From a virus (lineage: Duplodnaviria; Heunggongvirae; Uroviricota; Caudoviricetes): a stretch of 18,304 nucleotides of DNA. Below the pieces are notes generated by a model. It saw nothing but the letters and a program-made list of their open reading frames with translations, was not told where the DNA came from and ran no database searches. Below are positions 7,760 through 18,304 of this stretch, one piece after another. Location of the stretch: IMG/VR virus record IMGVR_UViG_2874933748_000006; one strand, given 5' to 3'. The position numbers and the translations under genes are program-made. Position 1 is the stretch's first letter; every line of letters begins with the position of its first letter.

Positions 7760-9151
7760 ATGGACTTACCTTCTTTACCTTCTCTTTCTTCACTCTTTTC
7801 TGCATCTTCAGGTATCAATTGGCGCGATAATCTTTACGACGCTTCATTTCGTGGCGTTCCGTTTTCGGTGGAGAGCGACGAGGGTTCGTTCGGACGCCGC
7901 GTTCAGGTCCATGAATACCCAAACCGTGACAAACCGTACACGGAAGATCTCGGGCGTGCCACGCGACGGCTGACGATTAATGCGTATCTCGTTGGTGATG
8001 ATTACGCAGAGCAGCGCGACAGGCTGATTACAGCGATTGAAACCGCCGGGCCGGGGACGCTGATCCATCCGCAGTTCGGTGAAATGCAGGGCTGTATTGA
8101 CGGGCAGGTGACCGTTTCTCACTCCGGCACTGAAGGCCGTATGTGCCGGGTTTCATTTCAGTTTGTTGAGAGCGGGGAACTGTCATTTCCGGTCGCCGGA
8201 GCTGCAACCGCCAGAAAACTGGAGGAGTCGTCCGTATTCCTGGATGAGTTGATTGAAGACATGTTCGGCGATTTTGATCTCGCGGGAATACCGGACTTTA
8301 TTCAGAACGATGTTATTGCCCGGACGACCGATATGCTGGGAACCGTTCAGACAGCTTTCAAAATGGTTAATTCGGCTGTTTCTGCCGGAGCGAGACTACT
8401 GCAGGGCGATTTATCCGTCATTCTGATGCCGCCGTCGGTTGCCAGTGATTTTGTGCATACGTTGCAGGATACCTGGCGGGCCGGAACCCGGCTGGTGGAT
8501 AACACACAGGATCTGGTGCAGTCCATAACGACAATGTCCGGCATTACGCTGGACCCAGGACTGGCACCGCGTGCGGTGTGGCCCACAGATTCCGCATCGG
8601 TTATCAGGCAAAAACAGCAGACAAACCTTGTGGCTGCTGTCATCCGGACGACGGCAATCAGCGAAGCCACAAGGGCGGTCACTTCACTGCCACAACCCGG
8701 AAGCCTGGTGAAAAATCAGCAGGCGGTTGTGGCTGTTGGTGGTTCCACTGAACGTCAGTCCGATATTATTCACGTTTCTCATCCGGCACTTGACAGCGTG
8801 GCAGCCAGCACAGGACAGGATGAGAGAGCGCAACCACCCACGCGGGAAAATCTCACCATCATACGCAAATCGCTGAACGCGGCGATTGAACAGGAGCTCA
8901 GGCGTACGGCGGATGACAGGCTGTTTTTTCAGCTGACGTCATTACGTACAGAACTGAACCGGGATATTCAGGCGCGTCTGGTTCAGACGGAGGAAACCGC
9001 AGAGCGAACGCCAGCGGAAGTTCTGCCTGCGCTTGTTCTGGCTGCGTCATGGTACGACGATGCGTCCCGTGAAACTGATATCCTGGATCGAAATGCCATC
9101 TCTCATCCGGGCTTTGTTCCGGTCAGGGCATTAAGGGTACCCGTCAGATGA
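7760..9151 (+). CDS. Phage DNA circulation protein (Mu gpN-like)
   Basis: ATG at 7760 preceded by GGAG. The N-terminal region (FRGVPFSVESDEGSFGRRVQVHEYPNRDKPYTEDLGRATRRLTINAYLVGDDY) matches the DNA circularisation protein family. Position after the tape measure fits. Confidence 0.8.
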   Translation: MDLPSLPSLSSLFSASSGINWRDNLYDASFRGVPFSVESDEGSFGRRVQVHEYPNRDKPYTEDLGRATRRLTINAYLVGDDYAEQRDRLITAIETAGPGTLIHPQFGEMQGCIDGQVTVSHSGTEGRMCRVSFQFVESGELSFPVAGAATARKLEESSVFLDELIEDMFGDFDLAGIPDFIQNDVIARTTDMLGTVQTAFKMVNSAVSAGARLLQGDLSVILMPPSVASDFVHTLQDTWRAGTRLVDNTQDLVQSITTMSGITLDPGLAPRAVWPTDSASVIRQKQQTNLVAAVIRTTAISEATRAVTSLPQPGSLVKNQQAVVAVGGSTERQSDIIHVSHPALDSVAASTGQDERAQPPTRENLTIIRKSLNAAIEQELRRTADDRLFFQLTSLRTELNRDIQARLVQTEETAERTPAEVLPALVLAASWYDDASRETDILDRNAISHPGFVPVRALRVPVR

Positions 9152-10236
9152 ATGATACCGTTTTACTTCGGGTTTCCGGTCGCGAATGGGGCGGCTGGAC
9201 ATCCGTCCGTATCAGTGCGGGCATTAACCGTATTGCCCGGGATTTTAATGTTGCCATTACCACCCGCTGGCCCGGAAGCCGGGATTATCAACCCCGGATA
9301 AAAAATGGTGAGCTGGTTGAAGTGCTTATCGGGGATGAGCCTGTGCTCACCGGATATGTGGAGGCACTACCGCTTCGTTATGACGCCAGCAGCGTCAGCA
9401 TGGGAATTGTCGGGCGAAGCAAAACAGCCGATCTGGTTGACTGCTCTGCTTTGCCACTCCAGCAGAGCGGAAAAAACCTGCTCAGAATAGTCAGTGAACT
9501 GGCTGCGCCATTTGGCATCACCGTTGTTGATGCTGGCGTGCCGCAGACAGCGGTGATTGATGCCCAGCCGGAACACGGCGAAACCGTTGCCGATTGTCTT
9601 AACCGGTTACTGGGGCAGGTTCAGACGCTGGCTTATGACGATGAATGCGGGCGACTGGTTCTGGGAAAACCCGGAACAGGTAAAGCGGCGACGGCGCTGG
9701 TGCTGGTGCTGGTGCTGGGAGAGAATATTCTTTCCTGTGACACGGAAAGAAGCATCAGAGAGCGGTTTTCTGAATATCAGGTCAGTGGGCAGCGCCCGGG
9801 CAACGACGATGATTTTGGTGAGGCCACCATTGCCGCAATACGTCAGACCATTCAGGACAGTGGCGTGACCCGTTATCGCCCTTTGTTGATTCAGCAGTCA
9901 GGCACAGCAACGACAGCAACCTGTAAGGCCCGTTGTGAATTTGAAGCGCGCCAACGGGCTGCGCTTACCCGTGAGACAACATATACGGTTCAGGGCTGGC
10001 GGCAGGGCAGTGGCGCGTTATGGCGTCCGGGGTTATCTGTCATCGTTTTCGACCCGCTGAATAATTTTGATAATGATGAACTGGTGATCGCAGAAGTTAC
10101 CTATAACCAGGACGACCGGGGCACGACGACTGAATTACGGGTTGGCCCGGCAGATGCTTATCTCCCCGAGCCTGTTACCGCCAGGAAGAAAAAAATGTTG
10201 AGGAGGATTTCTGATGAACGGGTTTTCTCTTCGTAA
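9148..10236 (+). CDS. Mu gpP-like tail/baseplate hub protein
   Basis: A 362-aa ORF whose start overlaps the previous stop (ATGA), in the gene-P position between the N-like gene and the baseplate V-like gene. Confidence 0.7.
   Translation: MNDTVLLRVSGREWGGWTSVRISAGINRIARDFNVAITTRWPGSRDYQPRIKNGELVEVLIGDEPVLTGYVEALPLRYDASSVSMGIVGRSKTADLVDCSALPLQQSGKNLLRIVSELAAPFGITVVDAGVPQTAVIDAQPEHGETVADCLNRLLGQVQTLAYDDECGRLVLGKPGTGKAATALVLVLVLGENILSCDTERSIRERFSEYQVSGQRPGNDDDFGEATIAAIRQTIQDSGVTRYRPLLIQQSGTATTATCKARCEFEARQRAALTRETTYTVQGWRQGSGALWRPGLSVIVFDPLNNFDNDELVIAEVTYNQDDRGTTTELRVGPADAYLPEPVTARKKKMLRRISDERVFSS
9696..9718. repeat. In-frame hexanucleotide tandem repeat (GCTGGT)x3 plus GCTGG inside the gpP-like gene
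   Basis: Direct reading of gctggtgctggtgctggtgctgg. It encodes the LVLVLVL stretch in ATALVLVLVLGENIL. Confidence 0.9.
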
Positions 10237-10747
10237 TCTGATTTCCCGGGCTGTCATCACGGCGGTGGATTCCGCCAGAAAGTGTCAGTCTGTAGGGTTG
10301 AAAATGATAGCCGGAGATCAGAAACAACACGTTGAGCACCTTGAACCTTATGGTTTTACATCTGCCGCACAGAACGGTGCTGAGGGCGTTGCTTTATTTC
10401 CGGCGGGCGATCGTTCTCATGGTGTGGTTGTGGTCGTGGCTGACAGACGTTACCGGCTGAAAGGACTGAAACGTGGGGAAGTGGCGCTTTATGACGATCT
10501 GGGACAGTCCGTTGTCCTGACCCGTTCCGGTATTGTGGTGGACGGGGCCGGGAAGGCCATAATTTTTAAAAACGCGCCTAAAGCGCGCTTTGAAATGCCA
10601 GTCGAATCCACCGCCGATATTACTGACAATTGCGACAGTGGCGGACTCAGCATGCAGCAAATGCGGCAGGCCTACAATGCCCACAAACATACCGAAAATG
10701 GTGATGGTGGCGGGATCACTGACACGCCGGATCAACCGATGGGCTGA
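10214..10747 (+). CDS. Phage baseplate assembly protein V (Mu gp45-like)
   Basis: ATG at 10214 preceded by GAGGAGG. The motifs AVITAVDSA, VEHLEPYGFTS and ALFPAGDRSHGVVVVVADRRYRL are characteristic of the baseplate V / gp45 family. Confidence 0.8.
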   Translation: MNGFSLRNLISRAVITAVDSARKCQSVGLKMIAGDQKQHVEHLEPYGFTSAAQNGAEGVALFPAGDRSHGVVVVVADRRYRLKGLKRGEVALYDDLGQSVVLTRSGIVVDGAGKAIIFKNAPKARFEMPVESTADITDNCDSGGLSMQQMRQAYNAHKHTENGDGGGITDTPDQPMG

Positions 10748-10752
10748 AAATC

Positions 10753-11163
10753 ATGATGATTAATGTTAACGGGCGACCCGTGTCGACCGGGGCTTCGATC
10801 GACCTTCTGACGCGTGCTGTGATTATTTCGCTTTTTACATGGCGGCGTGCCGGGCGTGATGATGCACCACGGATATTTGGATGGTGGGGGGATACCTGGC
10901 CTGCGGTTCAGAATGATCGCACGGGGTCGCGTTTGTATCTGTTGCGACGCAGCAAGCTGACAAATAAAACCCCGCAGCTTGCCAGAGATTATGTCCGTGA
11001 GGCGCTGGCGTGGATGGTGGAGGATGGTGTTGCTTCCCGTCTTGATATTAACGCTGTCCGGACCGGGACAGACTCGCTGGCACTTGCCATTACCATTTAC
11101 CAGCGTGACGGCAATATTCACAACATTATTTTTGATGATATCTGGAGTGAACTGAATGGCTGA
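10753..11163 (+). CDS. Mu gp46-like baseplate protein
   Basis: A 136-aa ORF with the GWWGD and SRLYLL motifs typical of the phage GP46 family, in the expected position between V and J. Confidence 0.75.
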   Translation: MMINVNGRPVSTGASIDLLTRAVIISLFTWRRAGRDDAPRIFGWWGDTWPAVQNDRTGSRLYLLRRSKLTNKTPQLARDYVREALAWMVEDGVASRLDINAVRTGTDSLALAITIYQRDGNIHNIIFDDIWSELNG

Positions 11164-11740
11164 CAGTCAGTTTTATCGCCCCGGCCTCCCGCAACTTATT
11201 TCTATGATCCGGAGCGATTTATTAACCCGCTTTGAGCAGGATACGCTGCTTCGTCGTATGGATGCGGAAGTGTATGCCCGTGTACAGGCTGCAGCCGTAC
11301 ACACGTTGTACGGGTATATCGATTATCTTGCCAGAAATCTGTTACCGGACGTGTGTGATGAAGACTGGCTGTACCGGCACGCCAGAATCAAACGCTGCCC
11401 GCGAAAAGAAGCGGTGGCAGCCCGGGGATTTGTGCGCTGGGATGGCGTAGAGGGGACGCCGGTATTGCCAGCGGGAACGCAGATCCAGCGTGATAATCAG
11501 GTGACCTTTACCACGACGGCGACGGTGACCGCAGCCGATGGTCTTCTCCGGGTGCCTGTTGTGGCAGACGAACCGGGATCGGCGGGGAATACGGATGATG
11601 GTATTGCCATGCAACTGGGAACACCCGTCAGTGGTCTGCCGTCCACAGGGTACGCTGACACCATTACAGACGGTGAAGATATTGAAAATCTGGAAATATG
11701 GCGTGCCCGCGTTATGGAACGTTATTACTACATTCCACAG

Positions 11741-11749
11741 GGGGGCGCA
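11741..11749. repeat. IS1 target-site duplication (GGGGGCGCA), left copy
   Basis: A 9-bp direct repeat identical to 12518-12526, flanking IS1 copy 2. Confidence 0.9.
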
Positions 11750-11764
11750 GGTAATGACTCCAAC

Positions 11765-12268
11765 TTATTGATAGTGTTTTATGTTCAGATAATGCCCGAT
11801 GACTTTGTCATGCAGCTCCACCGATTTTGAGAACGACAGCGACTTCCGTCCCAGCCGTGCCAGGTGCTGCCTCAGATTCAGGTTATGCCGCTCAATTCGC
11901 TGCGTATATCGCTTGCTGATTACGTGCAGCTTTCCCTTCAGGCGGGATTCATACAGCGGCCAGCCATCCGTCATCCATATCACCACGTCAAAGGGTGACA
12001 GCAGGCTCATAAGACGCCCCAGCGTCGCCATAGTGCGTTCACCGAATACGTGCGCAACAACCGTCTTCCGGAGACTGTCATACGCGTAAAACAGCCAGCG
12101 CTGGCGCGATTTAGCCCCGACATAGCCCCACTGTTCGTCCATTTCCGCGCAGACGATGACGTCACTGCCCGGCTGTATGCGCGAGGTTACCGACTGCGGC
12201 CTGAGTTTTTTAAGTGACGTAAAATCGTGTTGAGGCCAACGCCCATAATGCGTGCAGTTGCCCGGCAT
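11765..12268 (-). CDS. insB: IS1 InsB frame (expressed as InsAB' by -1 frameshift at 12205-12211)
   Basis: An intact 167-aa ORF in the -1 frame relative to insA, overlapping its 3' end, as in canonical IS1. Confidence 0.9.
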
Positions 12269-12462
12269 CCAACGCCATTCATGGCCATATCAATGATTTT
12301 CTGGTGCGTACCGGGTTGAGAAGCGGTGTAAGTGAACTGCAGTTGCCATGTTTTACGGCAGTGAGAGCAGAGATAGCGCTGATGTCCGGCAGTGCTTTTG
12401 CCGTTACGCACCACCCCGTCAGTAGCTGAACAGGAGGGACAGCTGATAGAAACAGAAGCCAC
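12187..12462 (-). CDS. insA: IS1 InsA
   Basis: A 91-aa ORF identical in translation to insA of copy 1. Confidence 0.95.
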
Positions 12463-12517
12463 TGGAGCACCTCAAAAACACCATCATACACTAAATCAGT
12501 AAGTTGGCAGCATCACC

Positions 12518-12526
12518 GGGGGCGCA
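12518..12526. repeat. IS1 target-site duplication (GGGGGCGCA), right copy
   Basis: Identical to 11741-11749. Confidence 0.9.
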
Positions 12527-13014
12527 GACCCTGATTATGTTATCTGGGCGAAAGAAGTTCAGGGTATTAACCGTGCATGGACTTTCAGACACTGGAAAGG
12601 CACTGGAACGGTTGGCGTGATGGTGGCGACAAACGATCCGGAACGCCCGGCCCCGGATGAAAGCGTGATTAACGCAGTCAGGGACCACATCCTTCCTCTG
12701 GCACCTGTTGCCGGAAGCGGATTGTATGTATTCGGTGCCACAGAAAAAGTCATCCCGATGACGATTGCATTATCGAAAGACACACCGCAGATCAGGACTG
12801 CAATAAAAGCAGAGCTGAATGCACTGATGTTACGGGATGGTGTGCCAGAGGGGCGTATGTATCTGTCCAGAATCAGTGAGGCCATCAGTTTGTCTGCTGG
12901 TGAAGTGGCCCACCGGTTAATCGTCCCTTCATCGGATATTGACCTGGGGGAGACCGAGCTTCCGGTGCTCGGCGAGATCACCTGGCAGGCTTATGACCCG
13001 GCAAGGAGTAAATA

Positions 13015-13605
13015 ATGGATTCGTTACAGGATGATTATACAAAGCTGCTGTACGGACTGATGCCGCCGGGGCCTGCATGGTCAGATACCGACGGTGTACT
13101 TGACGGTCTGGCACCATCGCTTGTGCGTGTTCACCAGCGGGCTGATGAACTGGTGATTGAAATCGATCCCGGTCAGTCCACAGAGCTGATTGAACGTTAT
13201 GAAGAATTGTATGGTTTACCTGATTCCTGTTCCCCTGTCGGAACCCAGACATTACGCCAGCGTCAGCAACGTCTTGAAGCAAAAGCCAATGTGGCTGGTG
13301 GCATAAATGAGCAGTTCTTCCTGGATCAGCTTGAGGCGCTGGGATATACCGGCGTAACGATCGAACAGTTCCAGCACTTGGATGCAAGCCCCGATCCGGA
13401 ATGGGGAGATCGCTGGCGTTATTTCTGGCGTGTGACGTTGCCGATGGATGCCGGTGCTCAGTGGCAGACATGCACGGACGCCTGCAACACACCGATCCGG
13501 ACGTGGGGGGATACGGTTGCGGAGTGCGTGATTAATAAATTATGTCCGTCACACACCGTCGTTTTATTTTCCTATCCAGATGAGGATGAAGATGCACAGG
13601 ATTGA
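13015..13605 (+). CDS. Mu gp48-like tail protein (DUF2313 / P2 gpI-like)
   Basis: A 196-aa ORF whose start overlaps the J stop (TAATG). The N-terminal LLYGLMPPGPAW motif and position after J fit the gp48 family. Confidence 0.7.
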   Translation: MDSLQDDYTKLLYGLMPPGPAWSDTDGVLDGLAPSLVRVHQRADELVIEIDPGQSTELIERYEELYGLPDSCSPVGTQTLRQRQQRLEAKANVAGGINEQFFLDQLEALGYTGVTIEQFQHLDASPDPEWGDRWRYFWRVTLPMDAGAQWQTCTDACNTPIRTWGDTVAECVINKLCPSHTVVLFSYPDEDEDAQD

Positions 13606-14632
13606 TACGCTGACTGCGGTAAAAGATAAGTTTGGTCCGGGTAAGAACGGATTTACTGACGGAAATCTTCGCACAGGACGTCTTGCTACCTGGCTGAACA
13701 GTGCCATGTGGAATGCCATTCAGGAGGAAATCTGTGGTGTCATTGAGAAGGCCGGGATAGAACTGAATAAAGAAGAACACGACCAGCTATATAAGGCTAT
13801 ATTATTGCTGGTGGGCGGTGCAATTAACGAAGAGGCATTGCTGATAAAAAATAACCTTTCGGATGTGGAAGACAGGGATGAGGCTGTTGAAAACCTCGGA
13901 TTAAAACCCACGGTGGATAAGGCAAAAAATGCCGTTCAGCGTGATGGCGACACCATGACCGGAGAGCTGAAAATCCGTGGTGTTAATGCGCTGAGGATTT
14001 TCAACGAAGCTTTTGGCCTGATTTTTCGTCGTTCGGAAGAGTGCCTGCACCTTATTCCCACCAGTGAAGGTCAGGGGGAAAATGGCGATATTGGTCCCCT
14101 GCGCCCGTTCACCATTAATCTGCGGACGGGTGAAATATCCATGTCGCATAAAGTGTCTGTTGGCGGTGGTTCGCAGGTCAATGGTGCGCTGGGTATCGGC
14201 GTTCAGAACGCCCTGGGGGGGAATTCAATTGTTCTTGGTGATAATGACACCGGATTCAAACAGAATGGTGATGGCCTGCTGGATGTTTATGCCAATAGCG
14301 TGCATGTGTTGCGTTTTCAGAGTGGCAGTATCCAGAGTAATAAAGCTGTAAACGTTACAGGACGGGTAACACCGTCAGACTACGGAAACTTTGATGCCCG
14401 TTACCAGCAGCGAAATGGTGGCGTGCAGGATGTGCGGTATGGTTATGAAATGTATTACACCCCCGGCAGTAACACCGTTTCGTGGACATTTCGCTCACCT
14501 TCGGGACACGGGCTGTCAGGGATATCGATATCGGATACCGGCCGTAACTCAGCGGATAACGTCAACGGCGTGTATTACCGACCGCTGCAAAAACTGATTA
14601 ATGGCACCTGGTATAACGTAGCGAGTATTTAA
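13592..14632 (+). CDS. Tail fibre protein with a P2 gpH-like C-terminal domain
   Basis: The motifs AVQRDGDTMTGEL, NALGGNSIVLGDNDTGFKQNGDGLLDVYANS and the C-terminal YRPLQKLINGTWYNVASI resemble the C-terminal part of P2 H-type tail fibres as I recall them. Start chosen at ATG 13592 (GAGGA upstream); in-frame ATGs also exist at 13580 and 13586. Confidence 0.75.
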   Translation: MHRIDTLTAVKDKFGPGKNGFTDGNLRTGRLATWLNSAMWNAIQEEICGVIEKAGIELNKEEHDQLYKAILLLVGGAINEEALLIKNNLSDVEDRDEAVENLGLKPTVDKAKNAVQRDGDTMTGELKIRGVNALRIFNEAFGLIFRRSEECLHLIPTSEGQGENGDIGPLRPFTINLRTGEISMSHKVSVGGGSQVNGALGIGVQNALGGNSIVLGDNDTGFKQNGDGLLDVYANSVHVLRFQSGSIQSNKAVNVTGRVTPSDYGNFDARYQQRNGGVQDVRYGYEMYYTPGSNTVSWTFRSPSGHGLSGISISDTGRNSADNVNGVYYRPLQKLINGTWYNVASI

Positions 14633-14634
14633 CA

Positions 14635-15180
14635 ATGTTGCATTTAAAAAATATTACGGCAGGTAATCCGAAAACCGCGGAATAATATCAGCTGACAAAA
14701 CAGTATGATGTCACCTGGCTTTTTTCGGAAGACGGCAAAAACTGGTATGAAGAACAGAAGAACTTTGCCAGTGACACCATAAAAATGGTTTACACCGGAG
14801 ACGGGCGCGTGGTGTGGGTCGGTAAGGATGTGACAGGCATTGAACCCCGTAACGCCAGTGTTATTGAAGTTCCTGATATTACCGCCAACCGCCGCATTAC
14901 CGCGCCGGGTTACTGGTTTTACCGCAATGATGAATTTGTCTTTGACTACAGACTCAAAGCGGAAGATGAGCGTGATGCCCTTCTGGCTCAGGTCAGTGCC
15001 CGGACAGGGGAATGGGAAGAAGACCTGCTGCTGGGGCTAATCAGCGACGAAGACCGGGAAAAACTGAAAGCGTACCGTATTTACGCGAAATCGCTGCAGG
15101 CGATGGATTTCAGCACCATCACTGATAAATCCTCATATAACGCCATTGAATGGTCCGTCTCTCCGGAAGGTTCTTCCTGA
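14635..15180 (+). pseudogene. Tail fibre assembly protein (Tfa) with an in-frame premature TAA at 14683-14685
   Basis: ATG at 14635 gives MLHLKNITAGNPKTAE, then TAA, then the frame continues YQLTKQYDVTWLFSEDGKNWYEEQ... to a C-terminus with the Tfa signature (KAYRIYAKSLQAMDFS...IEWSVSPE). The first in-frame ATG after the stop is at 14785. Confidence 0.7.
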
Positions 15181-15203
15181 TTTAATTTATCGCGAGAAAA
15201 ACT

Positions 15204-16472
15204 ATGTCTGTAGTGATATCAGGTGCGCTGACTGATGGCGCAGGCATCCCCATGTCCGGATGCCAGATTATTCTGAAATCCCGTGTAAACACCTCAGAAG
15301 TGGTGATGCGTACCAGGGCTGATGTAGTGACCGGAAATAACGGTGAATATTCGTTTGAGGCACAGGTCGGAAAATATTGCGTGTATCTGAAACGGGACTG
15401 GCGCGACGAGTACTGTGTTGGCGACATTGCTGTATACGACGACTCAAAGCCCGGCACGCTGAATGACTTTCTGATTGCTCCTGATGAGGGCGACCTGAAA
15501 CCGGATGTCGTCAAACGCTTTGAGGAAATGGTGGCGCAGGCGCAGCAGAGCGCCGGGGCCGCAGCCGGAAACGCACAGCAGACGGCGCAGGATGTGGCGG
15601 CAGCCGCAGGTTATGCCCGCGCAGCAGAGCAGGCCAAAAATGACATTGATGCTGCGCTGACCGGCACTCTGAAAACGGCTAACCATCTGTCTGAAATCGC
15701 AGCAGCAGGCGAAAAGGCACAACAGAAGTCCCGGGATAATCTGGGGCTGAAAAGTGCGGCCACGATGGAAGCACAGAGCGACATTTACGACCGGACAAAA
15801 GGCCGTCTGGCGATACCCGGCGCATTCGGCTTTGGGTGTGCTTTTCTGCCTGAAGATGTTATCCGTTTTGACACTAAGAGTGATTTCCTGGCCTGGGTAA
15901 GGAATGCGCTGCCAGGTGAATATTCCGTTGCTGGCCCCTACGACATCATCATACCCGACACACGGTTTGAAGGGGTGCTCAGCATCCGGTGGACTGATGC
16001 ACGCCCTGAGACAACAGAACCGAGGTACAGAGCCAAATCCCTTACTTTTTACGGCATTAACGGCCCCATTTATCACACCCGCTACTGCTACTGGCCCATA
16101 TCCAGACTGACTGGCTGGGTGAAAATAAATATAACCACAGAAGATATTATTTACAGAATCGTGGCGAGCTCTGTCTGCAACAGATGGGGAGACCCTGACA
16201 TTGGCGGGCTGATTATTGCTGCGTACCAGGGAGAAGCTGACGGTGATAAAGTCATCAGACTTGTCAGGGGGCAGTCATACAGAGGCTCACGACTGGGACC
16301 GGTGGGGATTTCAGTGCCCAGTACTCCCACCGGAACGTATATAGCATCCCCACAATTTTTCATTACGGGATGTTCAGAGCATTCATTACCGGGGTCATAT
16401 AGCGCCCTGTCCGGGGTGCCGGATGCTCATGTCTCTGGCGCAATGCCCGGGCTTTTTATTCGCACATCGTGA
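15204..16472 (+). CDS. Side tail fibre protein with a lambda Stf-like N-terminal domain
   Basis: The N-terminus (MSVVISGALTDGAGIPMSGCQIILKSRVNTSEVV...VYDDSKPGTLNDFL) closely matches the lambda Stf / prophage tail-fibre N-terminal domain as I recall it, followed by an Ala/Gln-rich segment and a distinct C-terminal domain. Confidence 0.75.
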   Translation: MSVVISGALTDGAGIPMSGCQIILKSRVNTSEVVMRTRADVVTGNNGEYSFEAQVGKYCVYLKRDWRDEYCVGDIAVYDDSKPGTLNDFLIAPDEGDLKPDVVKRFEEMVAQAQQSAGAAAGNAQQTAQDVAAAAGYARAAEQAKNDIDAALTGTLKTANHLSEIAAAGEKAQQKSRDNLGLKSAATMEAQSDIYDRTKGRLAIPGAFGFGCAFLPEDVIRFDTKSDFLAWVRNALPGEYSVAGPYDIIIPDTRFEGVLSIRWTDARPETTEPRYRAKSLTFYGINGPIYHTRYCYWPISRLTGWVKINITTEDIIYRIVASSVCNRWGDPDIGGLIIAAYQGEADGDKVIRLVRGQSYRGSRLGPVGISVPSTPTGTYIASPQFFITGCSEHSLPGSYSALSGVPDAHVSGAMPGLFIRTS

Positions 16473-16482
16473 GGAATGCACC

Positions 16483-17046
16483 GTGGAAATTAAAAAAATC
16501 ATTAATCCCCGTTATACCGAAAGTGGCGCAGTAGACTGTGACGTTTTTTTTGACGACAGGGACCAGGCAGTCCCCTACACAGCCACCGCTGATGATGTCG
16601 CACCGACGGGTCAGCGAATCTGGCAGGAACTGCAAAGTGGCAAATGGGGTGAGATAGCCCCATTCACTGTGACACCAGAAATGCTGGAAGCGGCCAGAGA
16701 GGCCAGACGTCAGGAAATTGAAGCATGGCGCACAGAACAGGAGGCGAAGCCGTTCACGTTTGAATGGAATGGTCGTATCTGGAATGCTGGCCCCGACTCA
16801 CTGGGCCGCCTGTCCCCGGTAGTCATGCTGGCAAAATCTGTCACAGCACAAACGCATATGGCGTGGGGTGATGCCGATAATCAGCAGGTGAAACTGTCGA
16901 TGCCGGAACTGGAAGAACTGGCGGCAGCAATGGTGCAGGCGCAGGTCGATCGCAACGATGAGATTTATCGCCGTCAGCGTGAAATGAAAGAGGAGCTGAG
17001 TGGTCTGGAGGATTTGGGAACAATTAGAGCGTTTGATGTTACGTAA
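16483..17046 (+). CDS. Putative tail fibre chaperone / assembly protein (DUF4376-like, family uncertain)
   Basis: GTG at 16483 is preceded by GAGGA (the upstream ATG at 16423 lies inside the fibre gene). The gene sits immediately downstream of the fibre gene and lacks the classical Tfa C-terminal motif. Family assignment is from memory and not verified. Confidence 0.45.
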   Translation: MEIKKIINPRYTESGAVDCDVFFDDRDQAVPYTATADDVAPTGQRIWQELQSGKWGEIAPFTVTPEMLEAAREARRQEIEAWRTEQEAKPFTFEWNGRIWNAGPDSLGRLSPVVMLAKSVTAQTHMAWGDADNQQVKLSMPELEELAAAMVQAQVDRNDEIYRRQREMKEELSGLEDLGTIRAFDVT

Positions 17047-17095
17047 TTGGTAAGCTGCATCGTGTTAAATTGTTACCCTTATTTACAACTAGAAA

Positions 17096-17126
17096 AGCCT
17101 CTGACTTCATAATCAGAGGCTTTTTT
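17096..17126 (+). terminator. Rho-independent terminator closing the tail-fibre operon (possibly bidirectional)
   Basis: Perfect 9-bp stem agcctctga (17096-17104), 8-nt loop, tcagaggct (17113-17121), then a T run to 17126. An A-rich tract on the other side would give a U-rich tail for transcripts arriving from ssrA. Confidence 0.8.
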
Positions 17127-17244
17127 GAAATGCACGTGCATTTTGCGTGTATATTTTTGTCTTTTTCTGGTCCGCTTACTGTCTGGTCAGTGTCCGTAAG
17201 TGACTGTTTTTATAGTCTCTGTCCGGTTGCAGTCCTGTCAAAAG

Positions 17245-17607
17245 TGGTGGAGCTGGCGGGAGTTGAACCCGCGTCCGAAATTCCTACATCCTCGGTACTA
17301 CATGCTTAGTCAGTCTTTACATTCGCTTGCCAGCTGCGGACGGACACGCCACTAACAAACTAGCCTGATTAAGTTTTAACGCTTCAACCCCAGGCAGGGC
17401 TTCCACGCGATCTCTTTTGGGTTTGACCTCTCTTGATCCCCGTCCTAAGAGCGGAGGCTAGGGAGAGAGGGCTCTAAGCAGGTTATTAAGCTGCTAAAGC
17501 GTAGTTTTCGTCGTTTGCGACTATTTTTTGCGGCTTTTTACGAGGCCAACCGCCCCTCGGCATGCACCTTGGGTTTCGCAAATCCCGTCGAATCCAGAAT
17601 CAGCCCC
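17245..17607 (-). ncRNA. ssrA: tmRNA (SsrA), 363 nt
   Basis: The reverse complement starts GGGGCTGATTCTGGATTCGACGGG and ends GGTTCAACTCCCGCCAGCTCCACCA. It contains the tag reading frame GCAAACGACGAAAACTACGCTTTAGCAGCTTAA (ANDENYALAA), matching E. coli tmRNA from memory. Confidence 0.95.
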
Positions 17608-17621
17608 AATGTGTAAAGGTA

Positions 17622-17651
17622 AGTATACCAGATTTATGAGCGCCATGACCA
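17622..17651 (-). promoter_or_regulatory. Candidate ssrA promoter (-10 TATACT; weak -35 TGGTCA)
   Basis: On the - strand TATACT lies 14 nt upstream of the mature tmRNA 5' end, consistent with a short leader removed by processing. The -35 match is poor. Confidence 0.3.
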
Positions 17652-17821
17652 GCCTCAATGGCGTTATCGTTAAAGATTTAGCACCCATGTAGCCTGATTT
17701 TTATTCGATTAAGCAATGGGATGGCAACATTTGTGTCGGATGTGATAGCCAATAAGATGTTCATTCGCGCCGCCGGAGAGGGAGGCGCGGTGAGGAACTG
17801 GTCAATAATTGGAGTGCAGGT

Positions 17822-18304
17822 TTAACGGTGGGCGTTTTTCATGATACGTGCTTTATCCACCTGCCATTCGCGTTCTTTGATATCTGAACGTTTATCGTGC
17901 TGTTTTTTACCTTTGGCGACGCCGATTTTCACTTTGCACCAGGCATTTTTCCAGTACAGGGAGAGCGCCACTACGGTATAGCCTTCTCGATTGACGCGAC
18001 CGTACAATGAGTCCAGTTCGCGCTGGTTGAGAAGTAACTTGCGGGTACGGGTAGGATCGCACACCACATGCGTGGAGGCCACGGCCATTGGCGTGATGTT
18101 AGCGCCAAACAGAAATGCCTCTCCGTCACGCAGAAGGACGTAGCTGTCGCTGATATTGGCTTTTCCTGCGCGCAGGGATTTAACTTCCCAGCCTTGCAGG
18201 GCAAGTCCCGCTTCGAACTCTTCTTCGATAAAGTATTCGTGACGGGCGCGCTTGTTAAGCGCGATGGTCGCTGAACCAGGTTTATGTGCTTTTTTCTTCG
18301 TCAT
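17822..18304 (-). CDS. smpB: SsrA-binding protein SmpB
   Basis: A 160-aa ORF beginning [72 protein letters not shown], matching enterobacterial SmpB. The start codon is the last three bases of the window. Confidence 0.95.

Follow-up and report, generated by a model that had tools for sequence, protein, structure and literature searches.

An ochre codon in the tail fibre assembly gene of a prophage remnant in Shigella sonnei

Does a stop at codon 17 of a tail fibre assembly (tfa) gene reflect a sequencing mistake, a gene that naturally begins further downstream, a gene that still works by some other route, or a gene that has been lost? The question is raised by an 18,304-nucleotide stretch of DNA from a virus record assigned to the Caudoviricetes (IMGVR_UViG_2874933748_000006), to which we refer in its full length as the window and the features of which are collected in Table 1. 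We consider it very probable that a vertically inherited Gln17-to-ochre mutation made tfa a pseudogene in an already defective prophage remnant of Shigella sonnei, and that the mutation was neutral. Below we set out the evidence for the mutation and its ancestral state, the candidates for a downstream start, and the condition of the surrounding prophage, weighing the alternative explanations where the relevant evidence arises.

Table 1. Coordinates of the features of the window, with the evidence for each
Feature	Position	Strand	Evidence or remark
End of IS4-family element (transposase C-terminus)	1..436	+	DDE_Tnp_1 and NF033592 matches
Remnant of portal 3' end and prohead protease 5' part	437..888	+	Peptidase_S78 match; matches L048 501-952
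IS3-family element	889..2146	+	Pfam and NCBIfam matches; replaces about 3.5 kb of head/neck genes
IS1 copy, 767 bp, target duplication CGTTAAAAC	6565..7331	+	Interrupts a hypothetical gene (160 aa) that lies after the tape-measure gene and before the DNA-circularisation gene
Baseplate J/gp47 gene in two parts, 11156-11749 and 12518-13015, with IS1 between them	11156..13015	+	Intact 360-aa homologues in L001, L040 and L048
IS1, 768 bp, in baseplate J/gp47, 9-bp duplication GGGGGCGCA	11750..12517	-	Gap relative to L001 and L048; InsA/InsB Pfam matches
Tail fibre 1, 346 aa, intact; presumed client of Tfa	13592..14632	+	ORF; weak gp37_trimer match
Apparent tfa pseudogene, 181-codon frame, Mu gpU-like Tfa	14635..15180	+	Interrupted at codon 17; translation, Pfam, PDB match, intact allele P0122
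TAA ochre codon replacing CAA (Gln17)	14683..14685	+	Followed by T (TAAT)
162-aa CDS of the public S. sonnei annotation, CTG start 6 nt (two sense codons) past the TAA	14692..15180	+	Gene calls
131-aa ORF from the first in-frame ATG past the TAA	14785..15180	+	ORF; 16 Logan contigs have a gene call for it
Tail fibre 2, 422 aa, prophage tail fibre N-terminal domain, intact	15204..16472	+	Pfam PF08400, E 2.4e-63; P0135 named S. sonnei
DUF4376 protein, 207 aa, likely partner of fibre 2	16423..17046	+	Pfam PF14301, E 1.5e-16
ssrA (tmRNA, tag ANDENYALAA), chromosomal flank, probable attachment site	17245..17607	-	ARAGORN
smpB	17822..18304	-	Pfam SmpB, E 1.5e-57

The interrupted frame and its ancestral codon

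The tfa frame starts with the ATG at 14635-14637, two bases past the TAA stop of the first fibre gene (14630-14632), and its first 16 codons are all sense codons, reading MLHLKNITAGNPKTAE, before the second TAA is reached. Past that codon the frame continues unbroken for 164 sense codons (YQLTKQYDVTWLF...) to a TGA at 15178-15180. An uninterrupted Tfa frame of roughly 175-200 codons is not present here, the TAA at codon 17 breaking it, and the stop is flanked on both sides by homology to the intact gene, which rules out a chance ORF boundary. The sequence and its translation thus bear out an earlier note on this DNA, which had described a TAA at codon 17 of a Tfa gene with Tfa-like sequence on either side.

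When codon 17 is read as glutamine, the restored 181-aa protein matches the Pfam family Caudo_TAP (PF02413) with an E value of 9.4e-25 and a score of 87.7 bits against a curated cut-off of 22.1, the match beginning at residue 40. The restored protein also aligns from its first residue with gpU, the Tfa of phage Mu (PDB 5YVQ_B; E 8e-39), and shares 98% identity with 181-aa Tfa proteins of Shigella boydii, while no NCBIfam model matches Tfa or either of the two fibres. Gene order points the same way: tfa lies directly downstream of its fibre gene, an arrangement common to loci L001, L002, L003 and L040, and the 346-aa fibre itself is also called in the intact relative L040 and in S. sonnei genomes. 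The likeness to Mu covers residues 1-158 of gpU/gp50 (TfaMu, 5YVQ chain B), including the KT.EQYQLTK motif that contains Q17, and the placement of tfa directly 3' of a fibre gene in a Mu-type baseplate module with gp45, gp46, gp47 and gp48. In this comparison the ochre codon at position 17 belongs to the window only, and whereas Mu has an invertible G segment, the window has none and carries instead a second, unrelated fibre/DUF4376 pair in tandem. The gene is a member of the Caudo_TAP family by descent, but apparently a pseudogene in its present state.

The ancestral sense codon is readily identified in close relatives, as CAA occupies position 17 in every other copy examined. The closest E. 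coli copy (FDAARGOS_944) departs from the window at a single one of the 201 columns of a DNA alignment, having C in place of the T at 14683. CAA is likewise found in all three comparators of the DNA alignment (E. coli FDAARGOS_944, E. coli RMDEC332 and phage pPE4), in 6/6 matches within GTDB species-representative genomes, in 18 further loci (8 S. boydii contigs and 10 loci whose allele equals the window protein except for Gln17), and in 66 of 69 IMG/VR contigs, the remaining three having TAA and representing the same locus as the window. At the protein level, Q17 is invariant in all 108 full-length 181-aa proteins that serve as cluster representatives among the 120 best database matches. One public allele, P0122, is the exact window protein with Gln17; its record lists 18 contigs, 21 were read on look-up, and some of its sources are named S. 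sonnei. The expectation in the earlier note that this codon had been CAA and had undergone a single C-to-T change is upheld by the alignment with intact Tfa homologues, and a single CAA-to-TAA transition appears to have turned tfa into a pseudogene. A Dcm (CCWGG) hotspot was considered as the source of the transition and ruled out, since the context GAACAAT contains no such site.

The earlier note had also allowed for a sequencing error at 14683, and this suspicion is not borne out. The same T was reproduced in 23 independently made assemblies, all from one locus, comprising 10 Logan short-read assemblies from several sequencing-run series (L004-L013), 10 complete NCBI chromosomes (L020-L029) that are 99.85-99.99% identical to window positions 5200-18304, and three IMG/VR contigs (L055, L093 and L107). 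The NCBI chromosomes were retrieved through the neighbouring 422-aa fibre gene and are therefore independent of the tfa allele, and individual accessions throughout are assigned to S. sonnei by the names that their protein clusters carry. The TAA allele was also sought among JGI metagenome contigs, with no match. Although only one base differs from the closest E. coli copy and the exact CAA allele does occur in some assemblies, as would be expected if the true base were C, we reject a sequencing or assembly error on the strength of the 23 concordant assemblies and regard its probability as vanishingly small; position 14683 also lies outside any homopolymer.

Some of the TAA-bearing assemblies have a different far flank. 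In L004 and L093 the fibre module is joined at window position 17047 to DNA other than ssrA/smpB; the joined DNA in L004 (2758-3716) encodes an ipaH-type NEL-domain protein, and that in L093 (1-2155) differs too. They were considered as a second, independent context in which TAA might have recurred and were rejected as such, because L004 has its mismatches to the window concentrated within the final 280 bp ahead of the 17047 junction. Both contigs resemble products of recombination between paralogous prophage copies, or of joins between such copies made in assembly. In L021 and L025, the DNA joined beyond about 12080 consists of an integrase and other genes of another prophage.

Downstream starts and the annotated product

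Homologues that naturally start at the ATG at 14785 would have undone the reading of a truncated gene, and the earlier note had named them as such; they were looked for and none was found among the family representatives of 160-240 aa. With clustering at 50% identity, these make up 97 of the 150 best representatives, and not one of the 97 is without the N-terminal segment, as judged by the offset between query start and protein start, which is 8 or less in all of them. The idea that the short form is the natural one, such that relatives would begin at the ATG at 14785 and the 16 codons ahead of the stop would be noncoding, could draw on the fact that the Caudo_TAP match starts only at residue 40. 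However, 108 of the 120 best matches are 181 aa long with M1-I7 invariant, residue 51 is V, I or L and not M in 24 of these 108 close relatives, and Mu gpU aligns from residue 1, so that together with the 97 representatives we find this account scarcely credible. A group of 141-154-aa proteins does exist that matches the C-terminal domain only, behind a different, shorter N-terminal domain; this group fits a modular architecture and does not reflect truncation.

In the truncated gene, translation from the native ATG would end after 16 residues. As the earlier note had stated, the next in-frame ATG is the one at 14785, and the ORF listing confirms both this and the 131-aa ORF that follows; it is in fact the earliest in-frame ATG, GTG or TTG past the TAA, the CTG at 14692 being the sole near-cognate codon nearer to the stop. 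As a restart site, though, it has competitors in the CTG at 14692, which RefSeq uses, and the GTG at 14809, which some gene callers prefer. The predicted duplex with the anti-Shine-Dalgarno sequence is -3.5 kcal/mol for the CTG, close to the window median, and -0.2 kcal/mol for the ATG, which has essentially no Shine-Dalgarno sequence; the GTG has a moderate one at -6.6 kcal/mol, which explains the 123-aa calls made in some assemblies. Initiation at CTG is very inefficient in E. coli. A promoter scan of 13000-17300 found no sigma-70-like promoter able to drive a separate downstream transcript. Any restart product, whether of 162 aa (CTG 14692), 131 aa (ATG 14785) or 123 aa (GTG 14809), would probably be made inefficiently, and it would be without part of the N-terminal domain.

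The public annotation gives a different impression. A 162-aa gene is called at 9489-9977 in L020, L021, L024, L026 and L027, and the corresponding RefSeq protein (P0121, "tail fiber assembly protein") is found on at least 1000 contigs. The RefSeq call from CTG 14692 hides the nonsense codon. A 162-aa start is also called (P0111) on S. boydii contigs (L030-L037, at about position 2019) that have an intact ATG and a CAA-containing 181-aa ORF, and the call therefore provides no evidence of a real start; it reflects a propagated start site, an annotation convention, and not biology. These S. boydii annotations were examined as possible further nonsense alleles and rejected, since the contigs keep both the ATG and the CAA. 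The locus thus illustrates how homology-driven annotation can mask a nonsense mutation, with the CTG start then spreading to genomes in which the 181-aa ORF is intact.

A gene that still works would need a shortened Tfa with chaperone or surface-binding activity left to it, arising by reinitiation at CTG 14692 or from a start at GTG 14809 or ATG 14785. North et al. 2019, as summarised in PMC9608196, assign contact with the fibre to the N-terminal domain of Mu Tfa and trimerisation to conserved C-terminal helices. In the AlphaFold2 model of a close homologue (P0001), the C-terminal helices (residues 105-155) have pLDDT values of 87-95, while those of the N-terminal domain are only 40-59, and its secondary structure is a weak indication. 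A shortened Tfa would thus be predicted to retain the conserved C-terminal helical domain, and the short distance of 6 nt between the TAA and the CTG, the Shine-Dalgarno sequence of the GTG and the wide distribution of the 162-aa product could all be enlisted for residual function. Yet residues 1-19 hardly vary among the 108 relatives and are still conserved in Mu gpU, which argues that the N-terminus is needed; the CTG is a poor initiator, the ATG is without a Shine-Dalgarno sequence, the 162-aa call has been placed on intact S. boydii ORFs as well, and the fibre has no virion to become part of. We accordingly rate a working gene as improbable, and rate lower still the more specific proposal that termination-reinitiation at CTG 14692 yields a 162-aa Tfa with some activity (binding to the cell surface, as reported for Tfa proteins, being one example), which S. 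sonnei would retain for a role in the host that has nothing to do with virions.

Full-length Tfa might in principle also be obtained by programmed readthrough, suppression or recoding of the TAA, in keeping with the intact frame beyond it; nothing specific points in this direction. All relatives encode the glutamine by CAA, with TAA confined to this degraded locus, ssrA is the sole tRNA-like gene in the window and no suppressor tRNA was found in it, and UAAU (TAAT in DNA) is an efficient termination context in E. coli. We assign readthrough almost no likelihood. Loss of the product through the Gln17-to-ochre mutation is the reading that we carry forward.

Codon 20, the site of the CTG at 14692, divides the close relatives roughly in two: 54 of 108 proteins and 45 of 69 IMG/VR contigs have ATG (Met) there, and the others have CTG (Leu), as does the window. 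On an ATG-20 background, the same nonsense mutation would still be followed, 6 nt on, by an efficient restart codon.

The surrounding prophage and the order of events

The window holds the tail half of a phiP27-like prophage, now a remnant, whose tail is Mu-like and which adjoins ssrA/smpB in S. sonnei. The Stx2e phage phiP27 and several E. coli prophages (AST215, STEC308 and FDAARGOS_944) share 94-99% DNA identity with it over most of the tail module and have the same gene order, and some of these phiP27-type relatives are also integrated next to ssrA/smpB. They have an intact 181-aa tfa and an intact baseplate J gene, and AST215 has a complete head module as well, whereas the window has the nonsense codon, a 3.5-kb deletion, three complete IS elements and the terminal part of one more.

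The decay can be read directly from these comparisons. The approximately 3.5 kb replaced by the IS3-family element, as defined by the intact E. coli AST215 relative (L048 953-4461), has no counterpart in the window and in that relative carries the prohead protease gene's 3' part and the genes for the major capsid protein, a head-tail connector, a head closure protein, the tail terminator and a DUF2635 protein. The ends of both IS1 copies and their 9-bp target duplications were read directly, and the split baseplate gene gives rise to separate Baseplate_J and Baseplate_J_C calls in S. sonnei genomes. Essential virion genes are therefore both missing, from capsid through terminator, and disrupted, by IS1 in baseplate J. 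The deletion of the head block at the IS3-family element, together with IS1 in baseplate J, leads us to conclude that the element was already unable to make virions, and the locus is incapable of doing so whatever the state of tfa. Where the earlier note had supposed that the stop probably disables assembly of the first fibre, the point is moot because the capsid gene has already been lost and IS1 interrupts baseplate J. For the same reasons, it would be wrong to score the tail module as a working phage or tailocin locus.

The relative timing of the lesions is suggested by two loci, L045 and L047, that begin inside the same IS1 and cross the identical IS1/baseplate-J junction, yet read CAA at codon 17. 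Across 3.2 kb, L045 has three differences from the window and L047 has two, one in each case being the C at 14683, so that each carries one or two other nearby differences. The presence of the same IS1 junction with CAA in both loci suggests that TAA arose after the death of the prophage. We infer that IS1 most likely entered baseplate J first and that the CAA-to-TAA change came later, as neutral decay in a dead prophage; this order assumes that L045 and L047 are not revertants or products of gene conversion from a paralogous prophage copy. In an element already without virion capacity, the tfa mutation would have been selectively neutral, and the neutral TAA allele would then have spread through the lineage by descent.

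The nonsense mutation is thus ordinary gene decay of a kind already known, a late lesion in a defunct S. sonnei prophage remnant. Inactivation by point mutation or IS insertion of prophage genes that are no longer under selection is familiar from the IS-ridden genomes of Shigella and from the tfa remnants of cryptic prophages in E. coli K-12, from which the window tfa does not differ in substance. The biological weight of the mutation is accordingly very small, as it adds one more neutral lesion to a dead prophage in an IS-rich Shigella genome. It has a minor practical use in the C/T difference at 14683, which provides a clean single-nucleotide marker separating most S. sonnei assemblies from the minority that keep CAA.

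Several smaller features of the locus deserve mention. The transposase frame of the IS1 at 6565-7331 is broken into short ORFs, and this copy may itself be defective. The roughly 200 bp (17047-17244) that separate the last prophage gene from the ssrA 3' end contain a terminator-like hairpin at 17130-17152; the attachment-site repeat and the integrase lie beyond the window. The segment 13015-17046 holds two fibre/chaperone pairs in tandem on one strand, one consisting of the 346-aa fibre and the Caudo_TAP Tfa and the other of the 422-aa phage_tail_N fibre and the DUF4376 protein, unlike the invertible segment of Mu. Finally, the junction between tfa and the second fibre gene recurs behind different baseplate modules (L042-L044), and the tfa/second-fibre region thus behaves as a mobile cassette.
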